This document shows positions 1 to 26,943 of a stretch of 42,223 nucleotides of DNA, one piece after another. The notes below the pieces were generated by a model. That model was not told the DNA's origin. It was given only the letters and a program-made list of their open reading frames with translations, and did no database searches. Source of the DNA: Candidatus Woesearchaeota archaeon (GTDB lineage Archaea > Nanobdellota > Nanobdellia > Woesearchaeales > DATGWN01); contig JBLKOU010000005.1 of assembly GCA_047603125.1 (NCBI GenBank), positions 1 to 42,223 of the forward strand, read 5' to 3'. The first letter of the stretch is position 1; every line of letters starts with the position of its first letter. The position numbers and the translations under genes are program-made.

Positions 1-2
1 CC

Positions 3-494
3 GCAGGGTTAAAAAGTATTATTTTAGCAAAAAAACATAAAGTAGTTGCTATTGATATTAACGAGGATAGATTAAATAATGCAAGGGATAATGCGGTTCT
101 ATTCGAAGTTGCTAAAAATACAGAATTTAAGAATGTTAATGCAGAAAATTTAAACGAATTAAAAAAATTAGGTGATTTTGATGCCATTTATATTGATGTG
201 GACTGGAGAGAAGATTTGTCCCACCCCATAAAAAAACAAAATATAGATCCTTTCAAAACATGTCCTAGAACAGATAAACTATATAAAAATCTTAGAAAAT
301 TACATCCTAAAACTCCGATTATTTTTAAAATCTCTCCTTTTGTTAGAGTTAAAGATTTAACTAAATTAGATTCGTGTGTCATTGAAGAGCTTTATATAGA
401 TGGAAAATTCTTATCTTATAATGTTTATTTTGATCCTAAAATTAAAAAATCAAGATGGCAGGGGATTCATCTTTTTAATAAGGAGGTAATCTGA
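3..494 (+). CDS. Class I SAM-dependent methyltransferase (Tgs1/RsmD-like RNA methyltransferase), 5'-truncated by the window edge
   Basis: Frame 3 is open from position 3 and reads AGLKSIILAKKHKVVAIDINEDRLNNARDNAVLFEV...FDAIYIDVDW. This gives the end of motif I, an acidic motif II (AID) and a DPxW-like motif IV. The listed 198..494 ORF is only its C-terminal part. Confidence 0.7.
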   Translation, partial: AGLKSIILAKKHKVVAIDINEDRLNNARDNAVLFEVAKNTEFKNVNAENLNELKKLGDFDAIYIDVDWREDLSHPIKKQNIDPFKTCPRTDKLYKNLRKLHPKTPIIFKISPFVRVKDLTKLDSCVIEELYIDGKFLSYNVYFDPKIKKSRWQGIHLFNKEVI

Positions 495-496
495 AA

Positions 497-997
497 ATGA
501 AAACTTATATAATGGTAGATATTGAAGCAAATGGCCCAATACCTGGAGATTATTCTATGACTTCCTTAGGAGCGGTAATAGTAGATGAAAAATTAGATAA
601 AACTTTTAAAATAAATATAAAGCCAATCTCTGAAAAATTTGATCAAAATAGGAGACAGTTTGTAGATGAAAAAGATGCAGTGGATGCAAAAGAAGCGATG
701 CAGAAATTTAAGGATTGGATTATAAAAAATTCTTCAGGAAAGCCAGTTTTTATTTCAGATAATAACGGTTTTGATTGGATGTTTGTATGCTGGTACTTTT
801 GGCATTTTTTAGAAGAGAATCCACTAGGATATAATTCTCAAAATTTGAATTCTTTAAACAAGGGATTAAATAAGGATTTGAAGGCGAAAATGGATCTATT
901 AAGAGAAAGAGATCTTACCCATGATGCTTTAGAAGATGCTAAAGATAATGCAAGGATATTTTTCGAACTAAAAAAGGAACATTTCAAAGAGATTTAA
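497..997 (+). CDS. DEDDh 3'-5' exonuclease (Rv2179c/RNase AS-like)
   Basis: Motifs VDIEANGP (ExoI), NNGFDW (ExoII) and HDALEDA (ExoIII); GGAGGT Shine-Dalgarno upstream. Confidence 0.85.
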   Translation: MKTYIMVDIEANGPIPGDYSMTSLGAVIVDEKLDKTFKINIKPISEKFDQNRRQFVDEKDAVDAKEAMQKFKDWIIKNSSGKPVFISDNNGFDWMFVCWYFWHFLEENPLGYNSQNLNSLNKGLNKDLKAKMDLLRERDLTHDALEDAKDNARIFFELKKEHFKEI

Positions 998-1006
998 ATA
1001 CAATTT

Positions 1007-1080
1007 CTTCTTTTTAGAAAAAAGAAGCAAAAAGACGGAAATCCCCATTTTCTTTTTTACAAAAAAAAGAAACAAAAAAA
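1007..1080. repeat. Two tandem A/T-stem hairpins (CTTCTTTTT-AGA-AAAAAGAAG and TTTCTTTTTT-AC-AAAAAAAAGAAA), terminator- or REP-like
   Basis: Two similar palindromes, each followed by CAAAAA, directly after the exonuclease stop codon. Confidence 0.45.
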
Positions 1081-1216
1081 GCGCGCGTCTCTCTAATACA
1101 TAGCCCACCCAAAAAAATATTATTTCTAAATTTATAAAACGGCATTCTCAAAAACTTTGATTTTTTGCCTTCGGCATCGTTGCGCTAAAAATCAAGTCCT
1201 CCAAGTATTCGGACGA

Positions 1217-1310
1217 AACTAACAGGGCTTAAAGGGTTCACTCACCTTGCAGGTTCGCTCTCCCAAATTTTTTGCTACGCAAAAAACTTCCCTTAAGCCC
1301 GATGTTAAAT
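1217..1310 (+). mobile_element. Integron attC-like recombination site 1
   Basis: R'' AACTAAC (1217-1223), spacer AGGGC, L'' TTAAAGGG, hairpin-rich centre, L' CCCTTAA, spacer GCCCGAT, R' GTTAAAT (1304-1310, fits GTTRRRY). L'' has one extra unpaired base relative to L'. Near-identical to 7410-7499. Confidence 0.7.
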
Positions 1311-1314
1311 CCAA

Positions 1315-1430
1315 TAAAATTTCCATTTCTTTTTTTTAGTTTTGGGGAGTTCCGGTGCTACGCACATATTCACTCACTTCGTTCGATATTTATTAGTAGA
1401 AGGGGGAGTTCTTTAACTTAAGGGGAGTTC
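1315..1430 (+). repeat. Left end motif set: 15-bp TAAAATTTCCATTTC plus three GGGGAGTTC boxes
   Basis: 15-mer at 1315-1329 and boxes at 1344, 1403 and 1422; inverted counterpart at 7192-7358. Confidence 0.8.
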
Positions 1431-1553
1431 CTTAGTCCTGTCGGACATCTACACTCGCAACTTCGTTGCTCGAAAATTTATTACTTTTTCTAAATTAAAT
1501 ATACTAAATTAAAAGAAAAGTATATAAATTAAATTAAATCTAGAAATATTAAA

Positions 1554-2351
1554 ATGAATAAAGCGTTATTACATCCTCAAACAGTTTTATTATGTGTAAA
1601 AAAAATTAAAAACCCTCATCTTTTTTTATTAGACTCACTTAATTTAATGAAAAAACCATATACACTGAAATTTAAAGATGGTTATAGTCTTAAAGTAAGA
1701 CCTAAAAATAATAAAAGAGTAGGAGATATTCACGTAATTAAAGATATTATATTATATAATCAATATGAATTAAAATCAATTCCTTCAAAAGGTGTGGTTA
1801 TAGACGTTGGTGCACAAATTGGTTGCTTTTCTGTACCTGTAGCTACAAATACTGATTGCTTAATTATTTCTATTGAACCTGAAAAAACGAATTATGAACA
1901 ACTTAAAAAAAATAAAACATTAAATAAATTAAAAAATATAAAAAGTTATAATGTCGCATTAACAAAAGAAAAAGGTTTTTCTTATTTCTACATATCTCAG
2001 GAAAATAGTGCAGGCCATTCACTGTTTCAGGATGATAAAAAACAAAAATACAAAGTTAAAACATTATCTCTTAAAGATATTATAGATGAAAACAAAATAA
2101 AAAAAATACAATATTTAAAATTAGATTGTGAGGGAGGAGAATATGATATTTTATTAAACTTATCAAAAAAATATCTAGATAAAATTAAAACCATATATTT
2201 AGAACAACACCACACGCCAGACATATTAAATAAATATGCCGAGGAATCCATCACAAATTATTTGGAAAAAAACGGGTTCAATCGAAAACTTATTGATAAA
2301 TTTTATTTTAAAGATGAAGGCACTTTTTACATTTTTAAATTTGAGAAATAA
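1554..2351 (+). CDS. FkbM-family SAM-dependent methyltransferase
   Basis: Motifs VIDVGAQIG, SIEP and LKLDCEGGEYDIL; TATATAAA box at 1521. Confidence 0.9.
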   Translation: MNKALLHPQTVLLCVKKIKNPHLFLLDSLNLMKKPYTLKFKDGYSLKVRPKNNKRVGDIHVIKDIILYNQYELKSIPSKGVVIDVGAQIGCFSVPVATNTDCLIISIEPEKTNYEQLKKNKTLNKLKNIKSYNVALTKEKGFSYFYISQENSAGHSLFQDDKKQKYKVKTLSLKDIIDENKIKKIQYLKLDCEGGEYDILLNLSKKYLDKIKTIYLEQHHTPDILNKYAEESITNYLEKNGFNRKLIDKFYFKDEGTFYIFKFEK

Positions 2352-2433
2352 CCATATTGAATTATAACCCTTCGGAATTTTTCCAAGTTTTAAACATGAA
2401 CATTTATAAACTTATTAAAAATTGTATATTAAA

Positions 2434-3186
2434 ATGCATGAAAAAAATTTATTGAATGAGTGCCCCATAAGATATGGCATCTTATTCGATTTGTTTAGAA
2501 GAAGCACAAATGAAGAAGAACTAATCATCGATAAAATTCTAGAAAAAATTAAACTTAAGAAACATAGAAATTCGTTATTAGATATTGGAGCAAGCGATGG
2601 AAATTTAATTCAGAAAATTATGAAATTTTTTAATAATACTTACGCCATAGAAAAAAGAGACGACTCTACATTATTTTTGGATTCTTTAGGAATAGATGTT
2701 TTAGAGAACATTTGGGAAGATTATAAAGGAAGGAAAAAATTTGATTTTATTCTTGCATCTCATGTATTTTATTATTTTCCGACATCTGATTGGAAAATGC
2801 ATCTTTTAAAAATGATGAAATTACTAAATAAAGAAGGTATCTTAATAGTTATTACAAATAGTATTGAAAGCGAATATACTGATTTTCTAAGAACATTTTA
2901 TCATAAAATATTAGGTGAAAAATTCATTTTAGAATCAATATTCACATACGCTGATAACTCAAATAAAGATTTTAAAGTGACAAAAGAAAGAATTTCAACA
3001 GATATTTTTTTGGAAAATAAAACCCATTTTTTATCAATGTGTGAATTCTGGCTAGGTTCAAGTAAAGAAAATTGGGGGGAGATTCATGAAGAAATTAGTG
3101 ATTACTATACCACTTTAAAAAATAGAAGTCCGCAAGGTAAAACGATTAAGTTAGACTTGGATGTTCTATGTATAGTCAGGAGATAA
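2434..3186 (+). CDS. Class I SAM-dependent methyltransferase
   Basis: Motif I LLDIGASDG, FDFILASHVFYY and LNKEGIL; ATG at 2434 follows a TTTATAAA box at 2403. Confidence 0.85.
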   Translation: MHEKNLLNECPIRYGILFDLFRRSTNEEELIIDKILEKIKLKKHRNSLLDIGASDGNLIQKIMKFFNNTYAIEKRDDSTLFLDSLGIDVLENIWEDYKGRKKFDFILASHVFYYFPTSDWKMHLLKMMKLLNKEGILIVITNSIESEYTDFLRTFYHKILGEKFILESIFTYADNSNKDFKVTKERISTDIFLENKTHFLSMCEFWLGSSKENWGEIHEEISDYYTTLKNRSPQGKTIKLDLDVLCIVRR

Positions 3187-3189
3187 ATT

Positions 3190-4041
3190 ATGAAATTATC
3201 AATAATAATACGCGTTAAAGATGACTTGAGGGTTGCGAGATGTTTAGATAGCATTGATGAAGATGTTGAAGTAGTTGTTGTTCTAAACACCCCTTCTAAA
3301 GAAGTCATAGAACTACTTAAGAAATATAATGTAGTAACAACAAAAATAAATAACAATAATTTAGCTAAAGCACATAATAGAGGAATAGAAGTGAGCAAAT
3401 ATGAATTTGTTTTATTAATGGATTCTGATTGTGTTTTCAAGAAAGGAACGATCAACAAACTTTATCAAGGGCTAAAAAGTGCAGATTTATCTAAAGGTCG
3501 AGTACTATTTAATCATTCTAGTTTTATTAGTAAAACAATTGCATTATCTAGAGAATATCATGTTACTGATATTGAAAATGCATATTCACCACCACTGGCT
3601 TTTAAAAAGGGGATTGATAAATATATAGGAAAATATTATTTTGATGAAGATATATTTTGGACCGAGGATCACGAATTTGATCAACGTGTTAAAAAAGCAA
3701 AATTAAAAATAAATTACAATAAAAAAGCAATAATCTATCATGATGAATTGTCTATAACTTCTGATTTGCGTAGTGCTCACAATTATGGGAGTGGATATTT
3801 TGAAGGAATAAAAAAAGGGGCCATTAAAGGTTGTTTTTTATATGGAGGTAATAAAAAGATATTACTTGCAGTAGGGTTAGATTTTATAAGATTATTGTGC
3901 TTGCCTTTCTTCTTTTTGTCCGTATTAATAAAGAAAAATATTTTTGTAGCATCGTATATGATTATTTGGATGGTTGTATTTAATTTAGGATATTATAGAC
4001 AAATGATGTTTAATCATTTGAATGTAGGTGGGAAAAAATGA
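3190..4041 (+). CDS. Glycosyltransferase family 2 (GT-A) with a C-terminal hydrophobic segment
   Basis: Motifs LSIII, AHNRGI, the DxD motif MDSD and TEDHEF. Confidence 0.85.
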   Translation: MKLSIIIRVKDDLRVARCLDSIDEDVEVVVVLNTPSKEVIELLKKYNVVTTKINNNNLAKAHNRGIEVSKYEFVLLMDSDCVFKKGTINKLYQGLKSADLSKGRVLFNHSSFISKTIALSREYHVTDIENAYSPPLAFKKGIDKYIGKYYFDEDIFWTEDHEFDQRVKKAKLKINYNKKAIIYHDELSITSDLRSAHNYGSGYFEGIKKGAIKGCFLYGGNKKILLAVGLDFIRLLCLPFFFLSVLIKKNIFVASYMIIWMVVFNLGYYRQMMFNHLNVGGKK

Positions 4042-4655
4042 AAAAGATTGTTGTAATTGCACCTCACCCTGATGATGAAATTATTGGTTGTGGGGGTCTG
4101 ATACTAAAAGCAAAAAATGCAGGATATGATTTAGATTTTGTTTACTTTATGACTCCTGAGAAAGAACGATTAAAAGAAATTAATAAAGTAAAGGAAAAAT
4201 TAAATGTAAAAAATATATGTTTAATTAATGCTGGGAAAGGACGAAGTTTCGTATTTAATAAACTAGAAAAAGAAAAACTCTTAGAAGTGCTTTCTCAACC
4301 AATAGATATTCTATTAATTCCTCATATAAACGAATCAGATCAAGATCATTCATTTGTTAATAAAGCTGTTAAAGATTGTTTAATTCTTAGACAAAATAAC
4401 AATCCCTTAAATTTAATATTAGGTTATGAAGTTTGGTCTCCAATAAAAGAACCAACAATACTTGTCAATATAGATGAAGTCTTTGAAGAAAAATTAGAAC
4501 TTATGCAAGCATACAAATCTCAAATAAAGAACCATAATTATATAAATATGATTAGAGGTCTCTCGCAATATAGAGGCTCTTTAAAAGGAAAAAAAGTAAA
4601 TCATGCAGAAGCATATCTTATTTATTACGAAAATAAAGGAGGAATATTTAAATGA
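4038..4655 (+). CDS. PIG-L/LmbE-family N-deacetylase
   Basis: APHPDDE metal motif, DQDH, YEVW and YKSQ; overlaps GT2 stop (ATGA). Confidence 0.9.
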   Translation: MKKIVVIAPHPDDEIIGCGGLILKAKNAGYDLDFVYFMTPEKERLKEINKVKEKLNVKNICLINAGKGRSFVFNKLEKEKLLEVLSQPIDILLIPHINESDQDHSFVNKAVKDCLILRQNNNPLNLILGYEVWSPIKEPTILVNIDEVFEEKLELMQAYKSQIKNHNYINMIRGLSQYRGSLKGKKVNHAEAYLIYYENKGGIFK

Positions 4656-6364
4656 GAATTTTGGGAATTTCAGGATGGAAGAATTTAAAAAAATATTTTC
4701 CAAATACCGATGCATTGCCTTTACACGATGCCTCAGCAGCCCTAATAGTAGATGATGAAATTATTGCTGTAGGCGAAGAAGAAAGATTTACAAGAAAAAA
4801 ACATGGGTATGATACCTTTCCTGTTAATGCAGCCGCTTTTTGTTTAAAAGAGGCAAAACTTACATTAGATGATATAGATAAAATAGCCATATATTGGGAT
4901 TTTCCGTATCATGCAAAAATTAAGGGTGAAAAGTGGACAACAAAAAATGAAGAGTTAGTAGAAAGAATATTTCCTAAAAATTTATTTCCGAGAAATAAAA
5001 ATGTGGAAGTCGTATTTGTTAATCACCACCTAAGTCACGCTGTTAGTGCTTGGTCTTGTTCTAGCTTTAATGAGTCTATTGTTATAGTTGTTGATGGACA
5101 AGGTGAGGATGCATCTACAAGTGTTTGGGTTGCTAAAGAAAATAAATTATCTTTATTGAGAAAAAGTAAGAGTTCAGCATCATTAGGTTTTTTTTATGAA
5201 GCATTGACAGAATTCGTGGGTTTAGAAGCAAATGAACCTGGAAAAACTATGGGCTTAGCATCCTTTGGTAAACCTATATACGACTTAAAAAAGTATTTTA
5301 AAATTGATGATGGAGTTATTAATTTAACTATAGACCCAGAAATAGATGAAAAGTCAGATTTCGATGAACAAAAACAAGTACGAAAATATTGGAAAAATAT
5401 TTTTAGTTCAATAATCAATAAAGAAAATGTAAATACGACAGAGTTCAATAAACTGTCATCACATTTCGATAAAAATGTTGAATTTAATGAAGAATATAAA
5501 AACCTTGCAGCTTCAGGACAGGAAGCACTAGAAAAAGTCATGCTTAAATTGGTTGAATGGACTGTTAAAAATACAGGAATAAAAAACTTGTGCTTGGCAG
5601 GAGGAGTGTCTTTAAATTGTGTTATGAATGGTAAAATTTTACAAAGTGGTTTAATAAAAGATGTTTTTATACAACCAATGGCCCATGATGCTGGTGCAGC
5701 ATTAGGTGCAGCTCAAGCATGTAACGATAAAAAAATAAGTAATTTTCAAGGAATATATTTAGGCCCTGAATTTTCGGAAGAAGAAATAATTAGTGAGCTA
5801 CAAAGGAATAAAGTCACATATAAAAAATCAAATAATGTTTGTTTAGAAGTGGCTAAACTATTAAATAAAGGCAACATAATAGGTTGGTTTCAAGGAAAAA
5901 TGGAAGTTGGTCCAAGAGCATTGGGCAATAGAAGTATTTTAGCCAATCCTATTTTATCTAATGCAAAAGATTTAGTTAATAAACATGTTAAATTTCGTGA
6001 AATGTGGAGACCCTTTGCACCATCTTTATTAGAAGAAGATGTGGATATCTATCTCGTTAATGCACATAAGTCCCCTTATATGATTCTTAATTTTGAAGTT
6101 AAAAAAGAAGCTTTAAAAAAAATTCCTGGAGTTTTACATATAGATAACACTGTTCGACCTCATACCGTTACTGAAGCTCAAAATAAAAAATATTATGAGC
6201 TCATAAAAGAATTTAAGAACATTACAGGAGTAGGTGTAATTTTAAACACATCATTTAATGTAAAAGGAGAACCGATTGTTTGTACGCCCAGAGACGCATT
6301 AAGAACTTTTTATTCATGTGGTATGGACTATTTAATACTGGGAGATTTTATTATAGCTAAATAA
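4652..6364 (+). CDS. O-carbamoyltransferase, NodU/CmcH/TobZ family
   Basis: Motifs HDASAAL, EEERFTRKK, HHLSHA, DGQGE, GKTMGLA, AGGVSLN, GPRALGNRSIL, RPFAPS and NTSFN. Confidence 0.95.
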   Translation: MRILGISGWKNLKKYFPNTDALPLHDASAALIVDDEIIAVGEEERFTRKKHGYDTFPVNAAAFCLKEAKLTLDDIDKIAIYWDFPYHAKIKGEKWTTKNEELVERIFPKNLFPRNKNVEVVFVNHHLSHAVSAWSCSSFNESIVIVVDGQGEDASTSVWVAKENKLSLLRKSKSSASLGFFYEALTEFVGLEANEPGKTMGLASFGKPIYDLKKYFKIDDGVINLTIDPEIDEKSDFDEQKQVRKYWKNIFSSIINKENVNTTEFNKLSSHFDKNVEFNEEYKNLAASGQEALEKVMLKLVEWTVKNTGIKNLCLAGGVSLNCVMNGKILQSGLIKDVFIQPMAHDAGAALGAAQACNDKKISNFQGIYLGPEFSEEEIISELQRNKVTYKKSNNVCLEVAKLLNKGNIIGWFQGKMEVGPRALGNRSILANPILSNAKDLVNKHVKFREMWRPFAPSLLEEDVDIYLVNAHKSPYMILNFEVKKEALKKIPGVLHIDNTVRPHTVTEAQNKKYYELIKEFKNITGVGVILNTSFNVKGEPIVCTPRDALRTFYSCGMDYLILGDFIIAK

Positions 6365-7110
6365 TTTTTTATAAATAAAACGAGTTTAGCAAAGTTTTCA
6401 TTTGACAAACTTAATATTGATTTATTTTGGATATCATCAGGAATTTTTAGGTTTTCAACGATTAATGCTGCTTCTCTTTTGGTTTTATTTTCCATATTTA
6501 TAATCGTATTTCTTAATCCGTTTTTTAACTTTTTATCTTTTTGTAATAATAACTCCTTCATGATTTTATCGAATTTTTTTAAAAATTCTTGATCTTTTTT
6601 TATAAATGATAAAATTACTGAATTTACGCGGGGTTTCGGTTCAAATGAAGTAGGAGATACGGTTTTAATTTTTTTTATTTCAAAAAAAGAATTCAACATA
6701 ACATATAATTTTTTTTCTTTCTTCAAGATTTTCCAAAAATTTTCTCCAACCAATAATATCATTAATTCTATATCTTCTCTTAAAACTTTTTTCATTAATG
6801 GTTCAGATATATGGTACGGTATGTTAGCAATTATTTTGTTAAATCGTAATTTATCAATTATTTTTATTATATCTTTATTTATTACTTCAATATTATGATC
6901 AATTCTTTCTAACAAAGGTATAAGATCTGCATCTAGTTCTACTGTAATTAGTTTTTTACATTTGTTAGATAATTTTTTTGTTAAAATACCTTTACCCGGA
7001 CCTATTTCTAACACTATATCTTTTTTAGTTATTCTTGAGTTTTTTATTATGGTCTCTAACACCACATTATCAATAAGAAAATGTTGTCCCAAATTGGATT
7101 TATCTCTCAT
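6328..7110 (-). CDS. rsmA: KsgA/Dim1/Erm-family rRNA adenine N6-dimethyltransferase
   Basis: Motifs LGQHFLID, VLEIGPGKGILT, ANIPYHIS and FEPKPRVNS; converges on and overlaps the carbamoyltransferase 3' end. Confidence 0.85.
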   Translation of the reverse strand: MRDKSNLGQHFLIDNVVLETIIKNSRITKKDIVLEIGPGKGILTKKLSNKCKKLITVELDADLIPLLERIDHNIEVINKDIIKIIDKLRFNKIIANIPYHISEPLMKKVLREDIELMILLVGENFWKILKKEKKLYVMLNSFFEIKKIKTVSPTSFEPKPRVNSVILSFIKKDQEFLKKFDKIMKELLLQKDKKLKNGLRNTIINMENKTKREAALIVENLKIPDDIQNKSILSLSNENFAKLVLFIKNYLAIIKSPSIK

Positions 7111-7191
7111 TATTTATTAATATTACTGTGCCATTTATATAATTTTTGAAACAAATAGATTGGACAGATATTTGTTCGCTTGTATTGAACG

Positions 7192-7358
7192 GAACTCCCC
7201 CTTGATGTATTGACTTGATGAGCCTTCGGCTTTGATAAAAAAGAACTCCCCTCGATAATTGTTCTCTATGGCACTTCGTGCTTTGAGGGAACGGAACTCC
7301 CCAGTCCTTCGGACATATTGGCTCCCTATGGTTGAATTTATTGGAAATGGAAATTTTA
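7192..7358 (-). repeat. Right end motif set: three GAACTCCCC boxes at a 51-bp period plus 15-bp GAAATGGAAATTTTA
   Basis: Boxes at 7192, 7243 and 7294; the 15-mer at 7344-7358 is the exact reverse complement of 1315-1329. Confidence 0.8.
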
Positions 7359-7409
7359 CTCTGCGGACGCAGGTTTTCCGAACTCCACTTCGTTCGTAAC
7401 GGAAAACGT

Positions 7410-7499
7410 ATTTAACAGGGCTTAAAGGGTTCGCTCGTTGCACTTCGCTCTCCCAAATTTTTTGCAAGCAAAAAACTTCCCTTAAGCCCGATGTTAAAT
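7410..7499 (+). mobile_element. Integron attC-like recombination site 2
   Basis: R'' ATTTAAC (7410-7416, fits RYYYAAC), AGGGC, TTAAAGGG ... CCCTTAA, GCCCGAT, R' GTTAAAT (7493-7499); direct repeat of site 1 differing mainly in the central hairpins. Confidence 0.75.
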
Positions 7500-7659
7500 G
7501 AAATAATTTTTAGTGGCTAAAAGCAGAAGGGGGAAATCAAAAAAAGAAATGATACATATTTGAAAAACAAAAGTTATGAGATATGTTAAAATTAAATCAG
7601 TTTTTAAGCTAAAATATAAAAAATTGATTTTTAGCAGTTTAAGTATTAAAAATAAACTT

Positions 7660-8847
7660 TTAATCTTTAAAATCGTCGACAATTGTTCTAAAAACTTCTA
7701 TTGTTTCATAATCATTTTCATCAAAATAATAATCAGTACTTGTTTTAACTATTATAAAATTATTTAGTGGGTCTATGTATATATATTGTCCCCACACACC
7801 TATTGCTGTATAATCTCCATGACTATTTTCAGGAATCCACCATTTATATCCATATCCGAAAGTCCAATCACTTTGTGGATTATCTCCTGGTTGAAGTCTA
7901 CTTTCATTTCTATTTATACTCTCATGAATCCAATTTTCAGGAACAATATCCAGACCATCATTTAAATACATAAACCCGAATCTAGCATAATCTCTAGAAA
8001 TAGCATTAAGACAACAAAATCCTATAGCTTTATTATTTCTTTCAGTACTCCAATAAGCATCACTTTCCATGCCCAAAGGCTGCCAGATTTTTTCTTCAAG
8101 CAATTTAGGTAAAGTTTTATTACTGACTTCTTCTAATACATAACCTAGAACGAGGGTATCGGAGCTTATATAATTATTATACGTTCCTTGTTCTGTAAAG
8201 AAATCAAGTTCTTTTGTATATTTGAGCATTGACTTGTTTAGACCCATACTCATAGGAAATATCATATTAATGTCACTAGTAAAATCTTCATAGTCTTCAT
8301 TGAATTTAATTCCACTACTCATTGTTAACAAATTTCTTATTGTTACATTTCCATAAGGAGTTCCCTTATATTCTTTAACATATTTTTTAACCGGGTCATC
8401 TAAATTATTAATTAGTCCTTCTTCGTAAAGAATTCCAGTCATAGCAGATACAAAACTTTTAGCAACGCTCCAACTTGTTATTTTATCAGTTTGTGAATAA
8501 TTTTGATAATATTCTTCAAATAAAATAGTATCATTTTGTAATACAATGAGAGAAGTAGTTTCAGTCCTATTTAGGAAATCATTTAAAATCAGTTCTTCAT
8601 CTTCAAAAAAATATATCTCGGGAAGATCTATTTTGTTATATCGAAAATCAAGATCTTCGGAGCCTTTATAAATTTGTTCATAAGGAAATATAGAGTTCAT
8701 GTTTTTAAAATTGTCAGCTCTATGTCCGTCAGCAAATAAAGTAAACATAACACTCCAAGGGCTATTTATCATCCAAATAGCTAATACAGAAAACAAAATA
8801 ATTATTAAGACAAGTATAGTCAAAAATACTTTATATTTACGTTTCAT
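7660..8847 (-). CDS. Serine hydrolase of the beta-lactamase class C/NylB-like family, N-terminally membrane anchored
   Basis: SxxK motif SVAK, LLTMSSG, YISSDT and GYGYKWW; N-terminal transmembrane helix. Confidence 0.9.
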   Translation of the reverse strand: MKRKYKVFLTILVLIIILFSVLAIWMINSPWSVMFTLFADGHRADNFKNMNSIFPYEQIYKGSEDLDFRYNKIDLPEIYFFEDEELILNDFLNRTETTSLIVLQNDTILFEEYYQNYSQTDKITSWSVAKSFVSAMTGILYEEGLINNLDDPVKKYVKEYKGTPYGNVTIRNLLTMSSGIKFNEDYEDFTSDINMIFPMSMGLNKSMLKYTKELDFFTEQGTYNNYISSDTLVLGYVLEEVSNKTLPKLLEEKIWQPLGMESDAYWSTERNNKAIGFCCLNAISRDYARFGFMYLNDGLDIVPENWIHESINRNESRLQPGDNPQSDWTFGYGYKWWIPENSHGDYTAIGVWGQYIYIDPLNNFIIVKTSTDYYFDENDYETIEVFRTIVDDFKD

Positions 8848-8908
8848 ATAGTTGCAAAGAAATTCTCTTTTTTAAATCTTTTCCATAAATAATTACTTTT
8901 TTATATTA

Positions 8909-9844
8909 ATGATCTTTAACAAGTTTAGTAAAATGAAAAAAAAAGAACAGTTTGCATTAATAGTAGGAGCGATAGGGAGTCTTTTGATGGCTTTCATTGC
9001 TTGGATTACATACTATTATTCAAATTCTGAGGCAATTTTGCTTGATGGTAATTATAGTTTTATTATGTTTATAGGTATTCTTATTGCCTTGAAACTTGCA
9101 TCTATCAGAGCTATTAAAACTAAAACCTTTCCATTAGGACAATTTTTTTACGAATCTTTATATGGTTTTATAAAAGGATTAATGATATTTGGAGTTATTT
9201 TAATGGCAGTAATGACTGCTATAGTTAGAATTTTTTCATATTATTTTGGTTCAACAGATAATATACCTCAACTGATTCCAGAGCCTATTATTTATTATGC
9301 TATTACCGTTGGAATTATATGTTTTATTCTTTCGTACAATTACAAAATTCAAAATAAGAAAATAAGTGATTCAAGTATTATATTAAAAACAGAACAAAAA
9401 GCTTCTTTTGTAGATGGAGTTCTGTCCTTTGGAATAGCTATTGGAGTTATTATGGTTTTAACTTTTTCAGGAGATGAAACTGGCAGTTTTATACCTTATT
9501 TAGCAGACTCTATATTTGTATTAGTTTTAGCATCATTTTTAATCAAAGAGCCAATAAAAATCATAAAAGAATCAGTTATTGAGTTAGCATCAGGAACATT
9601 GCAAAATGAAAATACAAAGAAAATGTTTGAAAATGTGATTCAAAAACATAAATCTAAAAATTATAAAATAAAAAACAGCATACTCAGTAAAAATGGAAGC
9701 AAATATATTATCATTTTATATGTTGAAAGCAAAGATGAAACTTATAATATTAAAGACTTAAAAAATATGAAAAAGAATATAGAAAAAGATCTTACGAAAA
9801 ATTACGAATATGTCTTTGTGGACATAATTCCATTTATCAAATAA
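8909..9844 (+). CDS. Cation diffusion facilitator (CDF) family transporter
   Basis: SEAILLDG, FPLG..YE, about six transmembrane segments and a soluble C-terminal domain. Confidence 0.8.
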   Translation: MIFNKFSKMKKKEQFALIVGAIGSLLMAFIAWITYYYSNSEAILLDGNYSFIMFIGILIALKLASIRAIKTKTFPLGQFFYESLYGFIKGLMIFGVILMAVMTAIVRIFSYYFGSTDNIPQLIPEPIIYYAITVGIICFILSYNYKIQNKKISDSSIILKTEQKASFVDGVLSFGIAIGVIMVLTFSGDETGSFIPYLADSIFVLVLASFLIKEPIKIIKESVIELASGTLQNENTKKMFENVIQKHKSKNYKIKNSILSKNGSKYIIILYVESKDETYNIKDLKNMKKNIEKDLTKNYEYVFVDIIPFIK

Positions 9845-9990
9845 ACAGTATAAAAAAATTAAAATATAAACATAATCGTCTCCCTCGATTCTTGTTCTTG
9901 ATGCACTAAGAAATCAAAGATATCTTGTGTCCAAAAAATGTACAATTTCTGAGGATATCACATTTACTCCTTAGATAGAACGCCTCTCAA

Positions 9991-10036
9991 AATTACTCTG
10001 GGGTTTGCTTTCAGCAAATCCTCGGGAACGTTGCAA
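9991..10036 (+). mobile_element. Degenerate attC-like palindrome (site 3)
   Basis: Stem-loop GGGTTTGC-TTTCA-GCAAATCC followed by TCGGGAAC-GTT. GCAAATCCT (10014-10022) is complementary to the AGGATTTGC of the half site at 11321. No clean R'' box. Confidence 0.35.
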
Positions 10037-10095
10037 TTCCGCTTCGCTCCAAAAACGAATTTATTTATAAGTAAGAACATTTTCTAATATTTAAT

Positions 10096-10625
10096 ATGGT
10101 AAATATATTTATTTCATCACAGGCGCTTCAGGAACTGGTAAGACATCTCTAGTTTCTGAATTAAAAAACAAATTTGATAGCAAAGATTGGGAATTTTTAC
10201 ACTTTGATTCTGTTGGTATTCCTTCAACAGAAGATATGATTAAAAAAAGTGGTTCTATAGAGAATTGGCAAAAAGAAACAACTTTTCTCTGGATTGAAAA
10301 AATGCTGACTGAATACAAAGATAGAAAAATAATTATATTTGAGGGTCAAGTCAATTTAGAATTTATCAAATTGGGTTTTTCAGAAAGCAATTTTTCTAAC
10401 TATAAAATTATTTTAATTGATTGTAATGAAGATGTTATGGCCAAAAGACTCTCAGAAAATAGAAAACAACCAGAACTAGTTAATGAAAATATGAAAAATT
10501 GGTTATGTTTTCTTAGAAGACAAGCAAAAAAAGTAAATGCTGCAGTTATTGAAACTTCAAATAAATCCAAATCTGAAGTTCTGTTATCTTTCGAAAATAT
10601 TTTAAAAAAGCATCAAGTGATTTAA
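10096..10625 (+). pseudogene. P-loop nucleotide-kinase-like protein with an out-of-frame start codon
   Basis: YFITGASGTGKTS (Walker A) begins at 10110 in the frame of the 10236..10625 ORF. The only nearby ATG (10096) is one base out of frame (ATGGTAAA where ATG-GGT-AAA would be in frame), and an in-frame TAA lies at 10092. Confidence 0.65.
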
Positions 10626-10626
10626 T

Positions 10627-10755
10627 ATGAAATACAACCCAAAGAAAATTAAGATCTATTCAGAAAACAATGAATTTCAACATGCTGAAGTTCTAAAGAG
10701 AAATAGAGTTAAGCCCTCAAAAATAAAATATTTATATATATGGTCGCTTATATAG
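10627..10755 (+). pseudogene. N-terminal fragment resembling a TrmH/SpoU RNA methyltransferase
   Basis: MKYNPKKIKIYSENNEFQHAEVLKRNRVK resembles, from recall, the N-terminus of a SpoU subfamily. The reading then runs into the TA promoter and stops after 42 aa. Confidence 0.45.
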
Positions 10756-10760
10756 TTATT

Positions 10761-10982
10761 ATGGGCCAAACAACAATCTCAGTAAATCACGAATTACTTA
10801 CCAAACTAAAAGAGAGAATGATGTATGATAGAGAATCATATGAAGAAATAATTTGGGGCGCTTTAGAGGACTCCATGGAATTATCTGAAGAAACTAAAAA
10901 AAGAATCAAAATAGCTGAAGAGGATATTAAAACAGGTAGAGTTTATTCTCTTGAAAATGTTAAAAAGGAATTAGGAATATAA
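10761..10982 (+). CDS. Archaeal RelB-like antitoxin
   Basis: TTISV beta-strand start, ESYEEII and the C-terminal EEDIKTGRVYSLENVKKELGI; lies directly upstream of a RelE remnant; TTTATATA box at 10731. Confidence 0.8.
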   Translation: MGQTTISVNHELLTKLKERMMYDRESYEEIIWGALEDSMELSEETKKRIKIAEEDIKTGRVYSLENVKKELGI

Positions 10983-10983
10983 A

Positions 10984-11230
10984 ATGTTTGATCTTTTTTT
11001 ACAGCCGAATCTAAGAAATTCCTAAAGAAACTTAATGAAAAGATTCTAAAAGAATTATTTCTACATTAGAAAGATGTAGAATCGGACCACATTCTTATGT
11101 TAAAAAATTAATTTCTTCTCCATATTTCAGATTACGTGTTAGAGATTATCGAGTAATTCTGGATATTAAAGCAGGTAAACTTTTAATTATTGTTGTTGAT
11201 ATAGGTCATAGAAAAAACACTTACAAATAG
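10984..11230 (+). pseudogene. relE: RelE/ParE-family toxin with two frameshifts
   Basis: Adding one T to the T7 run at 10994-11000 and one A at ~11038-11041 restores MFDLFFTAESKKFLKKLNEKDSKRIISTLERCRIGPHSYVKKLISSPYFRLRVRDYRVILDIKAGKLLIIVVDIGHRKNTYK. Confidence 0.8.
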
Positions 11231-11297
11231 TGAGCTTAAAATAAAACTTAGCTGAGATTTTTTTGCTTCTCAAAAAACCGCTTGCAGTTATCCCTCG

Positions 11298-11330
11298 GTC
11301 ACTTCGTGACGCCACTAACAAGGATTTGCC
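11298..11330 (+). mobile_element. Left half of an attC-like site at the island/core boundary
   Basis: Hairpin GTCACTTCGTGAC, then CACTAAC-AAGGA-TTTGCC, with no complementary right half downstream. Confidence 0.4.
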
Positions 11331-18928: not shown

Positions 18929-18976
18929 ACACAACATATTGTATTACAAGAGTTTGCAAAATACAAGATGGCGGGC
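18929..18976 (+). promoter_or_regulatory. Tandem NrdR boxes upstream of nrdD
   Basis: ACACAACATATTGTAT (18929-18944) fits acaCwAtATaTwGtgt; a weaker ATACAAGATGGCGGGC starts 32 bp later (18961). Confidence 0.7.
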
Positions 18977-19022
18977 AGTTTCTGAGTTCTTCAACAACTG
19001 CTTTTTAAAAAAGGTGAATATT

Positions 19023-22000
19023 ATGGTAAAATTGGTGCATACAAAAACAGAAAGCATTGACACATCGATACTCGATGATTATTTAGATCAACAGGACTGG
19101 CGGGTTAAAGAAAATAGTAATGTCAGTTATTCGTTTTCTGGTTTAATGCTCCATGCAGCCGGTAATATTATTGCCAAATATACGCTCATGCATTACCCGA
19201 ATGAAATTGCGACAGCACATAAAAATGCAGATTTGCATATTCATGACTTATCGATGGGCATTGCAGGGTATTGTGCAGGATGGTCTCTCAAGCAATTATT
19301 ATTAGAAGGGTTTAATGGGGTTGCAGGAAAAACATCGTCTCTGCCGCCAAAACACCTCTCGACAGCATTGGGTCAAATGGTAAATTTTTTAGGAACATTA
19401 CAAAATGAATGGGCGGGGGCTATGGCCTTCTCTTCTTTTGACACGTATTTAGCGCCATTTGTGCGAGCAGATGAGCTTTCTTATGATCAAGTAAAGCAAG
19501 CAGTCCAATCCTTTGTCTATGGGCTTAATATTAGCTCTCGCTGGGGCGGACAGTGTGTGAGTGAAGATACGCAATGTTTGACTGATTCAGGATGGAAGCA
19601 TTATAATGATATTAATCTAAAAAAAGATTTGATTGCGACATTTAACATAGAGACAGGTGTTATAGAATATTTAAAACCAAGTCGAGTAAAATCGTATGAT
19701 TATAAGGGAAAATTAGTGAGATTATCAAATCGTTCTCAGGATCAATTAGTTACACCAAATCACAAAGTTGTACGAAAAGTACATAATTCAGATTCATATG
19801 TCTTAGAGGAGGCACAAGATTTATTTCAATACAAGTCCCCCATCATTATTCCAAATTCTGGTTTTACACAATCTAAAAAAGAAATTGAAGACGAATGGGT
19901 CATGTTATTTGCGTGGCTTGTAAGTGAAGGAACATTTTCTGAGGATAGAGAGCGTGTGTCCATATTTCAATCAACAAAGAATAAAGCAAAATTGGAACAA
20001 ATACGTTTGATTTCAAAAAAACTTGGTTTGCGCTGGGATGAACAATCCCGAGTACATGGCTTTGGAACCGAACCTCTTGTTCGATTGCGTTTCGGGGCAG
20101 AATCTTCCCGCACGATTCGAAAAAAAATTTCTTCAAAAAAGATTCCAGCTATTGTAAAAACACTAAGTGCACGCCAAATTAAATTATTCATTGACACTTA
20201 TGTCTTAGGAGATGGTTCTATTGAAAAAAGTGGAAGAATGCGTATTTATACAAAAGATATTGATGTATTAAATGATTTGCAAGAATTATGCTCGCTCTGT
20301 CTTTATGGAAGTACGGTTTATCGCAGGACTAATGGAGTATATGTATTAAACATTATTCGAAATAACCACACATATGTGAAACTATCGTATGAAAAATATG
20401 TAGGAAAAGTATGGTGTCCAACGACAAAAAATGGTACGTTTATTGCTCGTCGTAATGGGAAAGTTTTTGTGACGGGTAATACGCCCTTTACAAATGTTAC
20501 ACTTGACTGGACGGTTCCTGAAGATATGAAGCAAGAACCAGTCATTTTGGGCGGAAAATATCAAAAGGAAACATATGGTCAATATCAAACAGAAATGGAT
20601 ATGATTAACCGCGCATTTTTAGAAGTTATGATTGAAGGAGATATGGATGGACGGATTTTTACATTTCCAATTCCAACATACAACATTACAAAAGAATTTG
20701 ATTGGGATTCACAAAATGCAAATTTATTATTTGAAATGACTGCAAAATATGGAATACCCTATTTTCAAAATTTCATAAACAGTAGTCTCAAGCCAAGTGA
20801 TGTACGAAGTATGTGCTGTCGCTTACAAATGGATTTACGAGAATTAAAAAGTAAAACGGGTGGTTTATTTGGTTCTGGAGAATCAACGGGCTCTATTGGT
20901 GTTGTAACGATAAATCTCCCTCGAATTGGTTTTTTAGCAAAGGATGAAGATGAGTTTTTATTGCGCCTTGGAAAGCTTACCGATTTGGCATATGAGTCAT
21001 TAGAAGTAAAAAGAAAAATGATTACACAGCACCTAGATAGTGGCTTATATCCATACACGAAGCGTTACTTGGGTTCATATGCAAATCATTTTTCAACAAT
21101 TGGAATTAACGGGATGAATGAAGCTGTACTTAACTTACTTGGTTGTACAATAGTCGATCCAAAAGGTCGTGCCTTTGCTCTTAAAGTGCTTGACTTTTTA
21201 CGTGATCGTTTACAATCATATCAAGAAGAATCGGGAAATCTCTATAATTTAGAAGCAACACCTGCAGAAGGTACTGCGTATCGATTCGCACGCCATGATA
21301 AGCGTTTGTACCCTCAAATTATCACTCAAGGAACAATTGAACCGTATTATACAAATTCAACACAATTACCTGTCGATCAGACTGATGATTTATTTGAAGC
21401 GCTGGATTTACAAGACGAACTTCAATGTAAATATACGGGCGGAACAGTCTTTCATGGTTTTTTGGGTGAGAGTATGAGTGATGTGCAAGCATGTAAAAAA
21501 CTTGTCAAACAAATTGCATACTCGTACAAGATGCCGTATTTTACTATTACGCCAACATTTAGTATTTGCCCAGGAACAGGTTTTGAGCCAGGTGAAGTAA
21601 GTCAATGTCCAAAAACACAACAGCCTTGTGATATTTACAGTCGTGTTGTGGGATACTTTCGCCCCGTGCAACAGTGGAATAAAGGAAAGTCTGCCGAATA
21701 CCAAAAACGAAAAGAATATGTTGCTCAGTTAAAAAATGATTCTGCACAAACACATATACAATCCTGGAATGATATTCCTGATCAATGTATTTTATTGACA
21801 TTATCAGGCTGTCCAAGCTGTCCGGGAGCAAAAGATGCCTTGCAAAATCAAAGCTTGGTTCCCCATACTGTTATAGATGCTTCAACACCGCAAGGAAGAG
21901 AAATGGCAAAACTCTACGCAGTTGAAAAAGTTCCAACGGCGATTTTTATGGATGCACAAAAAGAAATTGTTGCAAAAATAAGCGGAACGCAGCAAATTCA

Positions 22001-22028
22001 AGCATATGTTCAAGAGTTATCCAGATGA
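19023..22028 (+). CDS. nrdD: Class III anaerobic ribonucleoside-triphosphate reductase with an intein and a C-terminal redoxin domain
   Basis: Motifs WRVKENSN, HIHDL, YCAGW, TFPIPT, SMCCRL, EATPAE and the glycyl radical loop YSRVVGY; AAGGTGA SD before ATG 19023. Confidence 0.95.
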   Translation: MVKLVHTKTESIDTSILDDYLDQQDWRVKENSNVSYSFSGLMLHAAGNIIAKYTLMHYPNEIATAHKNADLHIHDLSMGIAGYCAGWSLKQLLLEGFNGVAGKTSSLPPKHLSTALGQMVNFLGTLQNEWAGAMAFSSFDTYLAPFVRADELSYDQVKQAVQSFVYGLNISSRWGGQCVSEDTQCLTDSGWKHYNDINLKKDLIATFNIETGVIEYLKPSRVKSYDYKGKLVRLSNRSQDQLVTPNHKVVRKVHNSDSYVLEEAQDLFQYKSPIIIPNSGFTQSKKEIEDEWVMLFAWLVSEGTFSEDRERVSIFQSTKNKAKLEQIRLISKKLGLRWDEQSRVHGFGTEPLVRLRFGAESSRTIRKKISSKKIPAIVKTLSARQIKLFIDTYVLGDGSIEKSGRMRIYTKDIDVLNDLQELCSLCLYGSTVYRRTNGVYVLNIIRNNHTYVKLSYEKYVGKVWCPTTKNGTFIARRNGKVFVTGNTPFTNVTLDWTVPEDMKQEPVILGGKYQKETYGQYQTEMDMINRAFLEVMIEGDMDGRIFTFPIPTYNITKEFDWDSQNANLLFEMTAKYGIPYFQNFINSSLKPSDVRSMCCRLQMDLRELKSKTGGLFGSGESTGSIGVVTINLPRIGFLAKDEDEFLLRLGKLTDLAYESLEVKRKMITQHLDSGLYPYTKRYLGSYANHFSTIGINGMNEAVLNLLGCTIVDPKGRAFALKVLDFLRDRLQSYQEESGNLYNLEATPAEGTAYRFARHDKRLYPQIITQGTIEPYYTNSTQLPVDQTDDLFEALDLQDELQCKYTGGTVFHGFLGESMSDVQACKKLVKQIAYSYKMPYFTITPTFSICPGTGFEPGEVSQCPKTQQPCDIYSRVVGYFRPVQQWNKGKSAEYQKRKEYVAQLKNDSAQTHIQSWNDIPDQCILLTLSGCPSCPGAKDALQNQSLVPHTVIDASTPQGREMAKLYAVEKVPTAIFMDAQKEIVAKISGTQQIQAYVQELSR
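19554..20480 (+). mobile_element. Intein (309 aa) with a LAGLIDADG homing endonuclease in NrdD
   Basis: Insertion at GGQ|CVSEDT ... VTGN|TPF; block B VTPNH; endonuclease motifs LFAWLVSEG and FIDTYVLGDG; block F VWCPTT. Confidence 0.93.
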
Positions 22029-25921: not shown

Positions 25922-26917
25922 TCAATCCCATTTAAGATTTCCAGAGGACTGGTATTCTGTGACGCGAGTTTCAAAGAAATTTTTCTCTTTACTTAAGTCA
26001 GTAGATTGACTCATCCACGGAAACGGATTTTCTTGGTCGTATTGTTTTGGAAGCCCAATACGCTCTAATCGTCTGTCTGCAATGTATTTGACATAGTTTG
26101 CAAATTGTTGGGCATTAATTCCTAAAACTCCTTGCGGACATGCGTCATGGGCATATTTAATCTCAAAATCTACTGCCTTTTTGATGAGTTCCACAATCTC
26201 TTCTTGAAATTCCTTTGTCCAAACATCAGGGTTTTCTTTTTTGATTGTATTAATTAAGTCACAGCCAAATGCCAGGTGCACACTCTCATCGCGCATGATA
26301 AATTCAAATTGCTCGCCAACACCAACCATTTTATTTTGTCTTTTGAGCGCAAGCATCATAGCAAATCCTGCATAGAAGAAAATCCCTTCCATAATGACAT
26401 AATAACCGATAATATCGTGCAGGAACTTTTGAATGTCTTTTACTGTTTTTGTTTCAAAATTCGGATCCATGACATTTTTTGTTAAATTAATAACAAAATC
26501 ATCCTTTTCTTTAATGGATGGTATTGTGTCATACATACTATAAATCTCTTCTGGATCAAGACCAAGTGTGTCGCAACAATAAATGAATGTGTCTGTGTGA
26601 ATTGCTTCCTCAAAGGCTTGTCGTAATAAATACTGGCGTGATTCAGGATTTGTCACATGTCTATAAACAGCAAGAACAATATTATTTGCAGTTAAACTCT
26701 CAGCTGTGGAAAAAAAGCCAAGGTTCCAAAGAATCATTCGTCGCTCCGTCTCTGAAAGTACAGTGTCTGATTTCCATTGCTCGACATCTTTTTGCATACC
26801 GATTTCTTCTGGTGTCCAATTATTTGCAACACCGTCTTTATAGTGGTGGCGTGCCCATTTATATTTCATAGGCAGTATCTTGTTTGGATCTGTTGCATTA
26901 TTGTTTATTATTCCCAT
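25922..26917 (-). CDS. nrdB: Ribonucleotide reductase beta subunit with the class Ic (Mn/Fe) signature
   Basis: Motifs FFSTAESL, EEAIHTDTF, MEGIFFY, RDESVH and KNFFETRVTEY. Confidence 0.95.
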   Translation of the reverse strand: MGIINNNATDPNKILPMKYKWARHHYKDGVANNWTPEEIGMQKDVEQWKSDTVLSETERRMILWNLGFFSTAESLTANNIVLAVYRHVTNPESRQYLLRQAFEEAIHTDTFIYCCDTLGLDPEEIYSMYDTIPSIKEKDDFVINLTKNVMDPNFETKTVKDIQKFLHDIIGYYVIMEGIFFYAGFAMMLALKRQNKMVGVGEQFEFIMRDESVHLAFGCDLINTIKKENPDVWTKEFQEEIVELIKKAVDFEIKYAHDACPQGVLGINAQQFANYVKYIADRRLERIGLPKQYDQENPFPWMSQSTDLSKEKNFFETRVTEYQSSGNLKWD

Positions 26918-26943
26918 TTTTTATCCTCGTGTATTCTCATTAT

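Follow-up and report, generated by a model that had tools for sequence, protein, structure and literature searches.

The window analysed here is the entire contig JBLKOU010000005.1 (42,223 nt, called C35 below) of the Candidatus Woesearchaeota archaeon assembly GCA_047603125.1 (1.12 Mb in 70 contigs), and its bases 1-11327 form an island that had been described, from the letters alone, as an integron-like cassette array. We found that the cassette array is real but that a canonical integron is excluded: the array works as an integron does, with neither an IntI integrase nor canonical attC sites. The island is probably the distal part of the cassette array of an integron-like platform, in which a XerA-like recombinase linked to an attI-like site (attI in the following) inserts cassettes into attI, and this platform is widespread across Woesearchaeota and the class to which they belong. 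As predicted, the island is AT-rich (GC 0.283 versus 0.364 in the rest) and the host is of Woesearchaeota type, the homologues of the window proteins being named Woesearchaeota or Nanoarchaeota. Position 1 of the window is the first base of the contig, and DNA further left was unreadable.

The array is marked by two attC-like sites (sites 1 and 2, Table 1). The two direct repeats of about 90 bp on which the original prediction rested are real: they are 91% identical over 91 nt and they fold on the bottom strand (z = -3.7). A search of the assembly with the 90-mer by BLAST returned two full copies only, so that the repeat is not scattered genome-wide, and the same two sites were the sole full copies found by a structural finder and by an attC-type covariance model that we built from 27 sites. 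Precisely, the structural finder gave, at a score of at least 9, two matches in the genome and none in the reversed genome. All eight C-GNA-G mini-hairpins of the island lie on the bottom strand, seven of them in two clusters around the sites. The predicted half site, at 11313-11327, was supported by its stretch being 83% identical over 71 nt to a trailer and attC 5′ arm of the relative G015, and by a lake-metagenome contig (X8, loose end at 11327) that extends it into a full arm. The degenerate site proposed at about 9991-10036 was rejected, as it gave no match to the covariance model with filters off and belongs to the cassette trailer 9956-10049, whose counterpart in G055 precedes an intact site. 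On another contig of the assembly (G000:C32, 5494-5646, minus strand) we noted an orphan trailer-like sequence, 71-79% similar to the window trailers, located 5′ of a gene and with no site after it, which is possibly a stranded cassette end.

The stem of these sites is made up of two helices, of 5 bp and then 11 bp, separated by a bulge of 2 nt that lies on the bottom strand's AAC arm. Two-sided changes occur in 9 of the 16 stem pairs, with 94% of cells paired versus 32-49% for slid controls. The sites of this test had been picked partly by pairing; it was repeated on held-out loci with the 3′ halves chosen by sequence alone. In this case, a candidate 5′ half existed for 31 of 40 3′ halves, and in 18 of these 31 all four free spacer bases were complementary, where permutation gave 2.8 expected and none of 5000 permutations reached the observed value. 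Of 40 sites examined for their anatomy, 24 have a fully paired spacer and 31 have at least four of its five positions paired. Canonical attC sites, as described in the accessible part of PMC5027507, have extrahelical bases on the arm facing the AAC triplet (G16 and T23/24 of the bottom strand) and, in each arm, 5-6 nt of central spacer that stay unpaired. None of these 40 sites has the canonical extrahelical C at its position (only the first extrahelical base was scored), and its absence would fit an enzyme lacking the helix that reads it. Hence the full canonical attC anatomy ascribed to the repeats was not recovered. Neither was the extra base of the L boxes as a feature of the family: the bulged register pairs better in 11/40 sites (both window sites included) and the unbulged one in 28, with one tie. 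After GTTA the sequence nnnn(C/T)AAT is conserved, hence an 11-nt arm of Xer/dif geometry, TTAnnnn(C/T)AAT, with dif as the reference for 11-nt arms (PMC8371274). Sites of the family are 76-165 nt long.

Insertion of cassettes at G|TTA predicts that the four bases preceding the TAAC of a site pair with the four that follow the previous GTTA, and not with those following the GTTA of the same site. In relatives, the R′ of the cassette itself was better than that of the in-situ neighbour in 25 versus 2 of 34 intervals (7 ties; P = 6e-6) and, on held-out loci, in 27 versus 6 of 36 intervals (3 ties; P = 3e-4). These R-box tests bear out the predicted cassette array with a G|TT crossover. For first cassettes, their own R′ was found in the attI motif beside the recombinase gene, with a match at 3 or 4 of 4 bases in 8/10 and 3/4 cases (11/14 overall), which ties the gene-adjacent site to insertion. 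Moreover, the leader that follows site 2 of the window follows the attI motif in G019 and G039, an observation independent of the R-box test, and homology between loci breaks at GTTA. In site 1 we place the crossover, by inference, between 1304 and 1305. In the window, the R″ of site 1 mismatches its own R′, as had been stated. It is also true that the R″ of site 2 corresponds to the R′ of site 1, but this does not discriminate, as the R′ of site 2 itself has the same 7 nt (3/4 versus 3/4).

The sole tyrosine recombinase of the assembly is a protein of 252 amino acids encoded at the end of another contig, C18, with the 5′ side of the gene toward the contig end. This contig stops at TTAA-TACTTG-TTA, that is, at the GTTA of attI. 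Such a break would be expected from a population with variable first cassettes, and the orientation would fit a join of C18 to C35. The recombinase aligns in one piece with Pyrococcus abyssi XerA and in two pieces with IntI4; it has 18 residues between the aligned blocks versus 67 in IntI4 (2A3V), and a motif spacing of 58 versus 105-106 in IntIs, and thus no IntI insertion. Its best NCBIfam match is the archaeal XerA model NF040815 (203 bits, cut-off 220), while the IntI model TIGR02249 gives a split match of 171 bits (cut-off 265). The catalytic residues R118, K143, H201, R204, H227 and Y236 are conserved among 21 aligned homologues. The predicted structure (predicted local distance difference test score 87) matches XerA and IntI4 alike and is therefore non-discriminating. 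The IntI-type integrase with its specific insertion that had been expected left of the window was thus not found: an upstream position agrees with the divergent upstream gene of relatives, but here the enzyme is XerA-like and lies on C18, and the window starts at the contig start.

We read by eye the motifs upstream of 29 recombinase loci in relatives, and found a TTAATAnnnGTTA-like attI motif in 21, a symmetric dif-like site in four and neither within 260 nt in four. The attI-linked proteins, to which the C18 recombinase belongs, form one clade (Shimodaira-Hasegawa-like approximate likelihood-ratio support 94-95), apart from dif-linked XerA and from IntI, and the genomes G050 and G054 have one protein in the attI-linked and one in the dif-linked clade each. 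The right arm of attI differs among genomes and matches the R″ of the first cassette, and is not one conserved symmetric 28-bp dif. A first tree grouped the attI-linked clade with dif-linked XerA (96), an approximately unbiased (AU) test did not reject its grouping with IntI (p = 0.43), and a quick tree with 18 IntIs and a mixture model did not settle the sister order of the three clades; for this reason we do not claim that the attI-linked clade is derived from XerA. Homologues of Candidate Phyla Radiation (CPR) type (L107, L111, L114, L121) have dif-like palindromes 5′ of the gene, as in the DPANN dif-linked group, and bacterial homologues with the same NCBI name lie directly 5′ of IS91-family transposases in Clostridium (L181, NZ_CP077625.1), so that the name spans several unrelated contexts.

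The covariance model found the site family in 27/61 near relatives and in 53/121 high-quality genomes across the phylum, eight of which do not belong to the order (this genome and some of the training genomes enter into both counts). No IntI was over the cut-off in the same 121 genomes, and the sub-cut-off matches listed for the IntI model span its N- or C-terminal part, never its middle. The full layout, with a divergent recombinase gene, an attI-like motif and 3-5 co-oriented sites between unrelated genes, is present in G007, G015, G011, G026 and G037. Among the 20 further, held-out loci a recombinase open reading frame (ORF) was detected in seven, always upstream and divergent, and sites were co-oriented in all arrays examined. 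An Rfam search gave nothing significant, and a generic attC finder gave no match at 48 bacterial and archaeal homologue loci, although this run lacked a positive control and is uninformative on Bacteroidota and CPR.

The cassettes themselves have inverted ends. In the six-gene cassette of the window, segments 1315-1329 and 7344-7358 form a perfect 15-bp inverted match, better than with any of 33 other leaders, and the modelled circle junction folds at -50.8 kcal/mol, the corresponding values being -33.5 in situ and, for 27 other leaders, -33.4 +/- 3.0. The match between its own ends and the circle-junction fold indicate that the six genes form one unit; its interior, 1454-7363, is also present as one 5,910-nt contig in a metagenome run of a second study (X2). 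No second copy of the whole cassette was found (the KsgA-like gene was searched across genomes, the cargo set against the collected loci only). In relatives, the inverted match of a trailer was better with its own leader than with the next one in 28 versus 4 of 33 cases, and in 29 versus 4 of 35 at held-out loci. Leaders are also reused: the one after site 1 has 92-95% identical copies in G050 and at locus L185 with other cargo behind, and the site arm in front of it is a different one in G050 and in a Joint Genome Institute (JGI) contig, as are the downstream genes (an exact-leader scan of JGI metagenomes gave one locus). Behind the near-identical copy in G050 (L021, G050:C90, about 42700-43100) there is an ORF resembling IS200/IS605 TnpA. 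We also observed ORF-less intervals of 95-250 nt between attI and a site or between sites (G037:C3 103041-103468, including a tandem duplicate, G029:C4 5797-5901, G051:C54 and G125:C3), which are candidate empty shells.

Cargo ORFs are in the same versus the opposite orientation in 30 versus 29 and 41 versus 29 cases in the two locus sets (71 versus 58 in total), and 9/34 and 14/36 intervals (23/70 in total) hold at least two ORFs. In the window, TATA-like boxes were found at -36 to -21 of 6/7 tested gene starts, versus 4.2% of island positions. The claim of multi-gene, two-stranded cassettes with their own promoters therefore stood, and with promoters carried by the cargo itself, genes may lie in either orientation and cassettes often hold several genes. 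Two intervals between sites measure 11.7 and 14.9 kb (G029:C4 15129-26790, loci L032 and L033, and G160:C14); the former has 11 co-oriented genes resembling metal-handling genes, and the two are either very large cassettes or stretches with missed sites. Each cassette would be a shell of leader, trailer and site with inverted-repeat ends. These ends may record the way in which the cassette was built, keep the excised circle stable or, on lagging-strand DNA, bring the two junctions of the cassette together.

As to the mechanism, the recombinase would bind a double-stranded, dif-like attI (arm-TAA, 6 bp, TTA-arm) 5′ of its own gene together with a cassette site in the form of its folded bottom strand, and the cassette would be inserted by exchange of one strand pair at AA|C, which is G|TTA in top-strand notation. 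Since only the R-proximal bases are common to the attI spacer of 6 bp and the bulged spacer of the site, a second exchange would be blocked and replication would resolve the junction, a resolution described for the CTX phage and for integrons in the accessible parts of PMC5357621 and PMC7790495. Recombination of site with site would excise cassettes.

Other explanations were weighed against this platform. The XerA-like protein could be the housekeeping dimer resolvase of the cell and attI its chromosomal dif, at which cassettes pile up as passengers similar to integrative mobile elements exploiting Xer (IMEX). The protein is in fact the only tyrosine recombinase of the assembly and matches archaeal XerA best, attI has dif geometry, and the CTX phage enters dif as a folded single strand (PMC5357621). 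We nonetheless hold this to be unlikely, given that the recombinases found beside symmetric dif-like sites form a clade of their own, G050 and G054 having one enzyme of each kind, and that the variable right arm of attI, matching the first cassette, is unlike a conserved dif. We give still less credit to a canonical CALIN (attC sites clustered with no integron-integrase), in which ordinary attC sites would be served by an unassembled or trans-acting IntI and the XerA-like neighbour would be incidental. The AAC/GTT ends and the hybrid junctions are as in integrons, and attC clusters without IntI are recorded for 16 Nanoarchaeota metagenome-assembled genomes (MAGs) in the accessible part of PMC9668308 (Data S1); against this stand the 53 genomes with sites and none of 121 with an IntI over the cut-off, the lack of the canonical extrahelical base and of an unpaired spacer, and the 11 of 14 first cassettes whose R′ lies in the site beside the XerA-like gene.

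The same platform could also work by double-stranded recombination of Xer-type sites, folding serving, for example, transcription termination or cassette formation. The TAA-spacer-TTA geometry of either half of the site speaks for this, as does the absence from the enzyme of the helix that is tied to single-strand recognition in the accessible part of PMC7790495. Compensatory changes, however, keep the two halves of the site paired, the GNA mini-hairpins near the sites are all on the bottom strand, and from the chemistry of tyrosine recombinases the unalike spacers of attI and site would block a two-exchange reaction; such a mode is therefore very improbable. As for hairpins similar to miniature inverted-repeat transposable elements (MITE) or repetitive extragenic palindromic (REP) sequences, collecting in an AT-rich island with no role in gene capture, hairpin-rich intergenic DNA and the orphan sequence on C32 are what they would leave, but with only two full copies genome-wide, co-orientation in arrays, linkage to attI, and hybrid junctions and a homology break at GTTA that contradict it, we regard this explanation as hardly credible.

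Several observations count against the insertion of cassettes by the attI-linked recombinase. Recombinase and array are on separate contigs, and the ends of C18 overlap with those of neither C35 nor any other contig. Neither a dif-type site nor a recombinase paralogue was found in this assembly (one site pattern was searched), and the C18 recombinase may also resolve dimers here. The genomes compared are related, so that the P values of the R-box tests overstate the support, 8/70 cassettes favour the in-situ neighbour, and the R-box pair of the window itself ties (3 versus 3), the hybrid pattern being thus established from relatives only. Some long multi-ORF intervals probably hide missed sites. 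For six of the 20 held-out loci, the selection was based on a recombinase match nearby, which was not so for G085, G127 and G137. No junction of an excised circle (7493-1305) or of an empty site was found in the contigs of four metagenome runs; joints between 1236-1370 and 7299-7533, considered as circle junctions, are explained by the repeated sites and by cassettes of other organisms. In run X2 there is no cover over 7813-8246 beside the single contig of 1454-7363, and no contig joins across, which we did not use as evidence; near the sites the contigs have high depths, which do not represent copy numbers.

Compared with known systems, the platform shares with integrons (IntI, attI and attC; PMC9668308) a divergent recombinase gene with an adjacent attI and GTT insertion point, co-oriented folded AAC/GTT sites with G|TT crossover and chimeric junctions, a toxin-antitoxin-like pair in the array and purine-rich loops on the bottom strand. 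It differs in that the enzyme lacks the IntI insertion, the central spacer is paired, with a 2-nt bulge on the AAC arm and no canonical extrahelical base, and the right arm is a conserved 11-nt Xer-type arm. Furthermore, integron cassettes are promoterless, co-oriented, of a single ORF and expressed from Pc, whereas here they occur in both orientations with their own promoters, are often multi-ORF, and have inverted repeats as ends. The Nanoarchaeota attC tested by Ghaly et al. 2022 (PMC9668308, accessible part) has canonical anatomy, by eye unlike the sites described here. With archaeal XerA/dif (PMC8371274; PMC5357621) the platform shares the colinearity with P. abyssi XerA and an 11-6-11 dif geometry of attI by the gene of the enzyme; unlike it, the clade is separate from dif-linked DPANN XerA, one attI arm is cassette-derived and variable, and the partners are arrayed folded sites. 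As in IMEX of CTX-phage type, a folded single-stranded partner, a Xer-family enzyme without I2 and one strand exchange would be involved here. In CTX-type IMEX, a folded single-stranded attP is recombined at dif by XerC and the product is resolved by replication, and integrated CTX loses its fold; here, in contrast, a single and probably dedicated recombinase would act, the cargo is non-phage, arrays are serial and sites stay foldable after insertion. The pdif modules of Acinetobacter plasmids likewise hold accessory genes between Xer-type sites. Their sites are short double-stranded XerC/D sites, whereas those described here are 76-165 nt long, folded and tied to attI.

In the accessible parts of the sources, the I2 insertion is treated as the innovation that gave integrases the capacity to recombine single strands in folded form (PMC7790495). 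As detection tools demand this insertion, a recombinase that lacks it is dismissed when it lies near attC sites (PMC4889954): 21 recombinases located beside attC sites but devoid of the IntI domain were judged by Cury et al. not to be IntI (PMC4889954). Ghaly et al. reported 16 Nanoarchaeota MAGs with attC clusters and no IntI in any of them, XerA being unmentioned in the accessible text (PMC9668308). We found no published description of this system in a literature search whose coverage left out most subscription journals. There is, in our estimate, an even chance that it represents a second kind of integron, in which cassette capture and shuffling depend on an I2-less Xer-family recombinase in about four of every ten Nanoarchaeota genomes, being either an independent invention or a living pre-I2 stage of integron evolution, and in which genes of the host lineage are loaded into a reusable leader-trailer shell with inverted ends to make cassettes. 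If so, integron behaviour (attI, folded sites and chimeric junctions) would not need I2, the system would offer a natural intermediate or a convergent solution in integron evolution, and it would be a main route of accessory-gene turnover in these reduced genomes. Some arrays of DPANN genomes that lack an integrase may be explained by it. The reuse of leaders with different cargo is relevant to the debated origin of cassettes, and cassette genesis would become directly testable if shells are indeed filled. A 252-residue enzyme moving multi-kilobase cassettes could also serve as a compact tool.

Table 1. Coordinates of sites, cassette parts and cargo in the window
Feature	Coordinates	Strand	Remarks
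Leftmost cassette's cargo, 5′-truncated	3-997	+	S-adenosylmethionine (SAM) methyltransferase fragment 3-494; DEDD-type 3′-5′ exonuclease 497-997
Leftmost cassette's trailer, hairpin-rich	1154-1219	+	97% identical to the trailer preceding a G015 site
Site 1, attC-like, folded	1217-1315	+	TAAC 1220-1223, GTTA 1304-1307, Xer-type right arm 1305-1315
Complete six-gene cassette, 6,189 bp	1305-7493	+	Ends are inverted repeats; modelled circle-junction fold
Leader of six-gene cassette	1305-1500	+	Inverted copies of trailer segments at 1315-1329 and about 1344-1353
Five co-oriented cargo genes	1554-6364	+	FkbM methyltransferase, SAM methyltransferase, GT2 glycosyltransferase, PIG-L deacetylase, NodU/CmcH-type carbamoyltransferase
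KsgA/RsmA-like rRNA adenine dimethylase	6328-7110	-	Sole PF00398 member over cut-off in the assembly
Trailer of six-gene cassette	7140-7412	+	Bottom-strand C-GNA-G mini-hairpins
Site 2, attC-like, folded	7410-7504	+	TAAC 7413-7416, GTTA 7493-7496
Next cassette's leader	7494-7560	+	87-90% identical leader adjoins attI-like site near recombinase gene in G019 and G039
Divergent cargo pair	7660-9844	.	Beta-lactamase-fold serine hydrolase 7660-8847 (-); CDF cation transporter about 8933-9844 (+)
Orphan cassette trailer, its attC-like site lost	9956-10049	+	82% over 98 nt to G055 trailer
Decaying distal cargo	10095-11229	+	P-loop kinase, antitoxin-like ORF 10761-10982, RelE-like ORF
Trailer and truncated attC-like 5′ arm (half site), island end	11256-11327	+	TAAC 11316-11319

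The five co-oriented cargo genes likely function in glycan or small-molecule modification, judging from their predicted products. The nearest named relatives of the KsgA-like protein are Nanoarchaeota/Woesearchaeota (DPANN) proteins; its gene is patchy in the order, being found in 22/151 genomes with the window query, and the only KsgA/RsmA-family gene of the assembly sits within a mobile cassette. In the distal cargo, the nearest ATG of the P-loop kinase is out of frame, and the RelE-like ORF, whose label rests on resemblance with no NCBIfam match, is spread over three frames; the antitoxin-like ORF is 53% identical to the antitoxin-like member of the gene pair that ends the array of G007. 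Just 3′ of the exonuclease of the leftmost cassette, 992-1035 is 86% identical over 44 nt to a cassette leader of G126, though it is in trailer position, and leaders and trailers may share parts. Outside the island, 18939-22028 and 25922-29709 contain an anaerobic ribonucleotide reductase-like gene with an apparent intein and class I reductase-like subunits (labels by resemblance).

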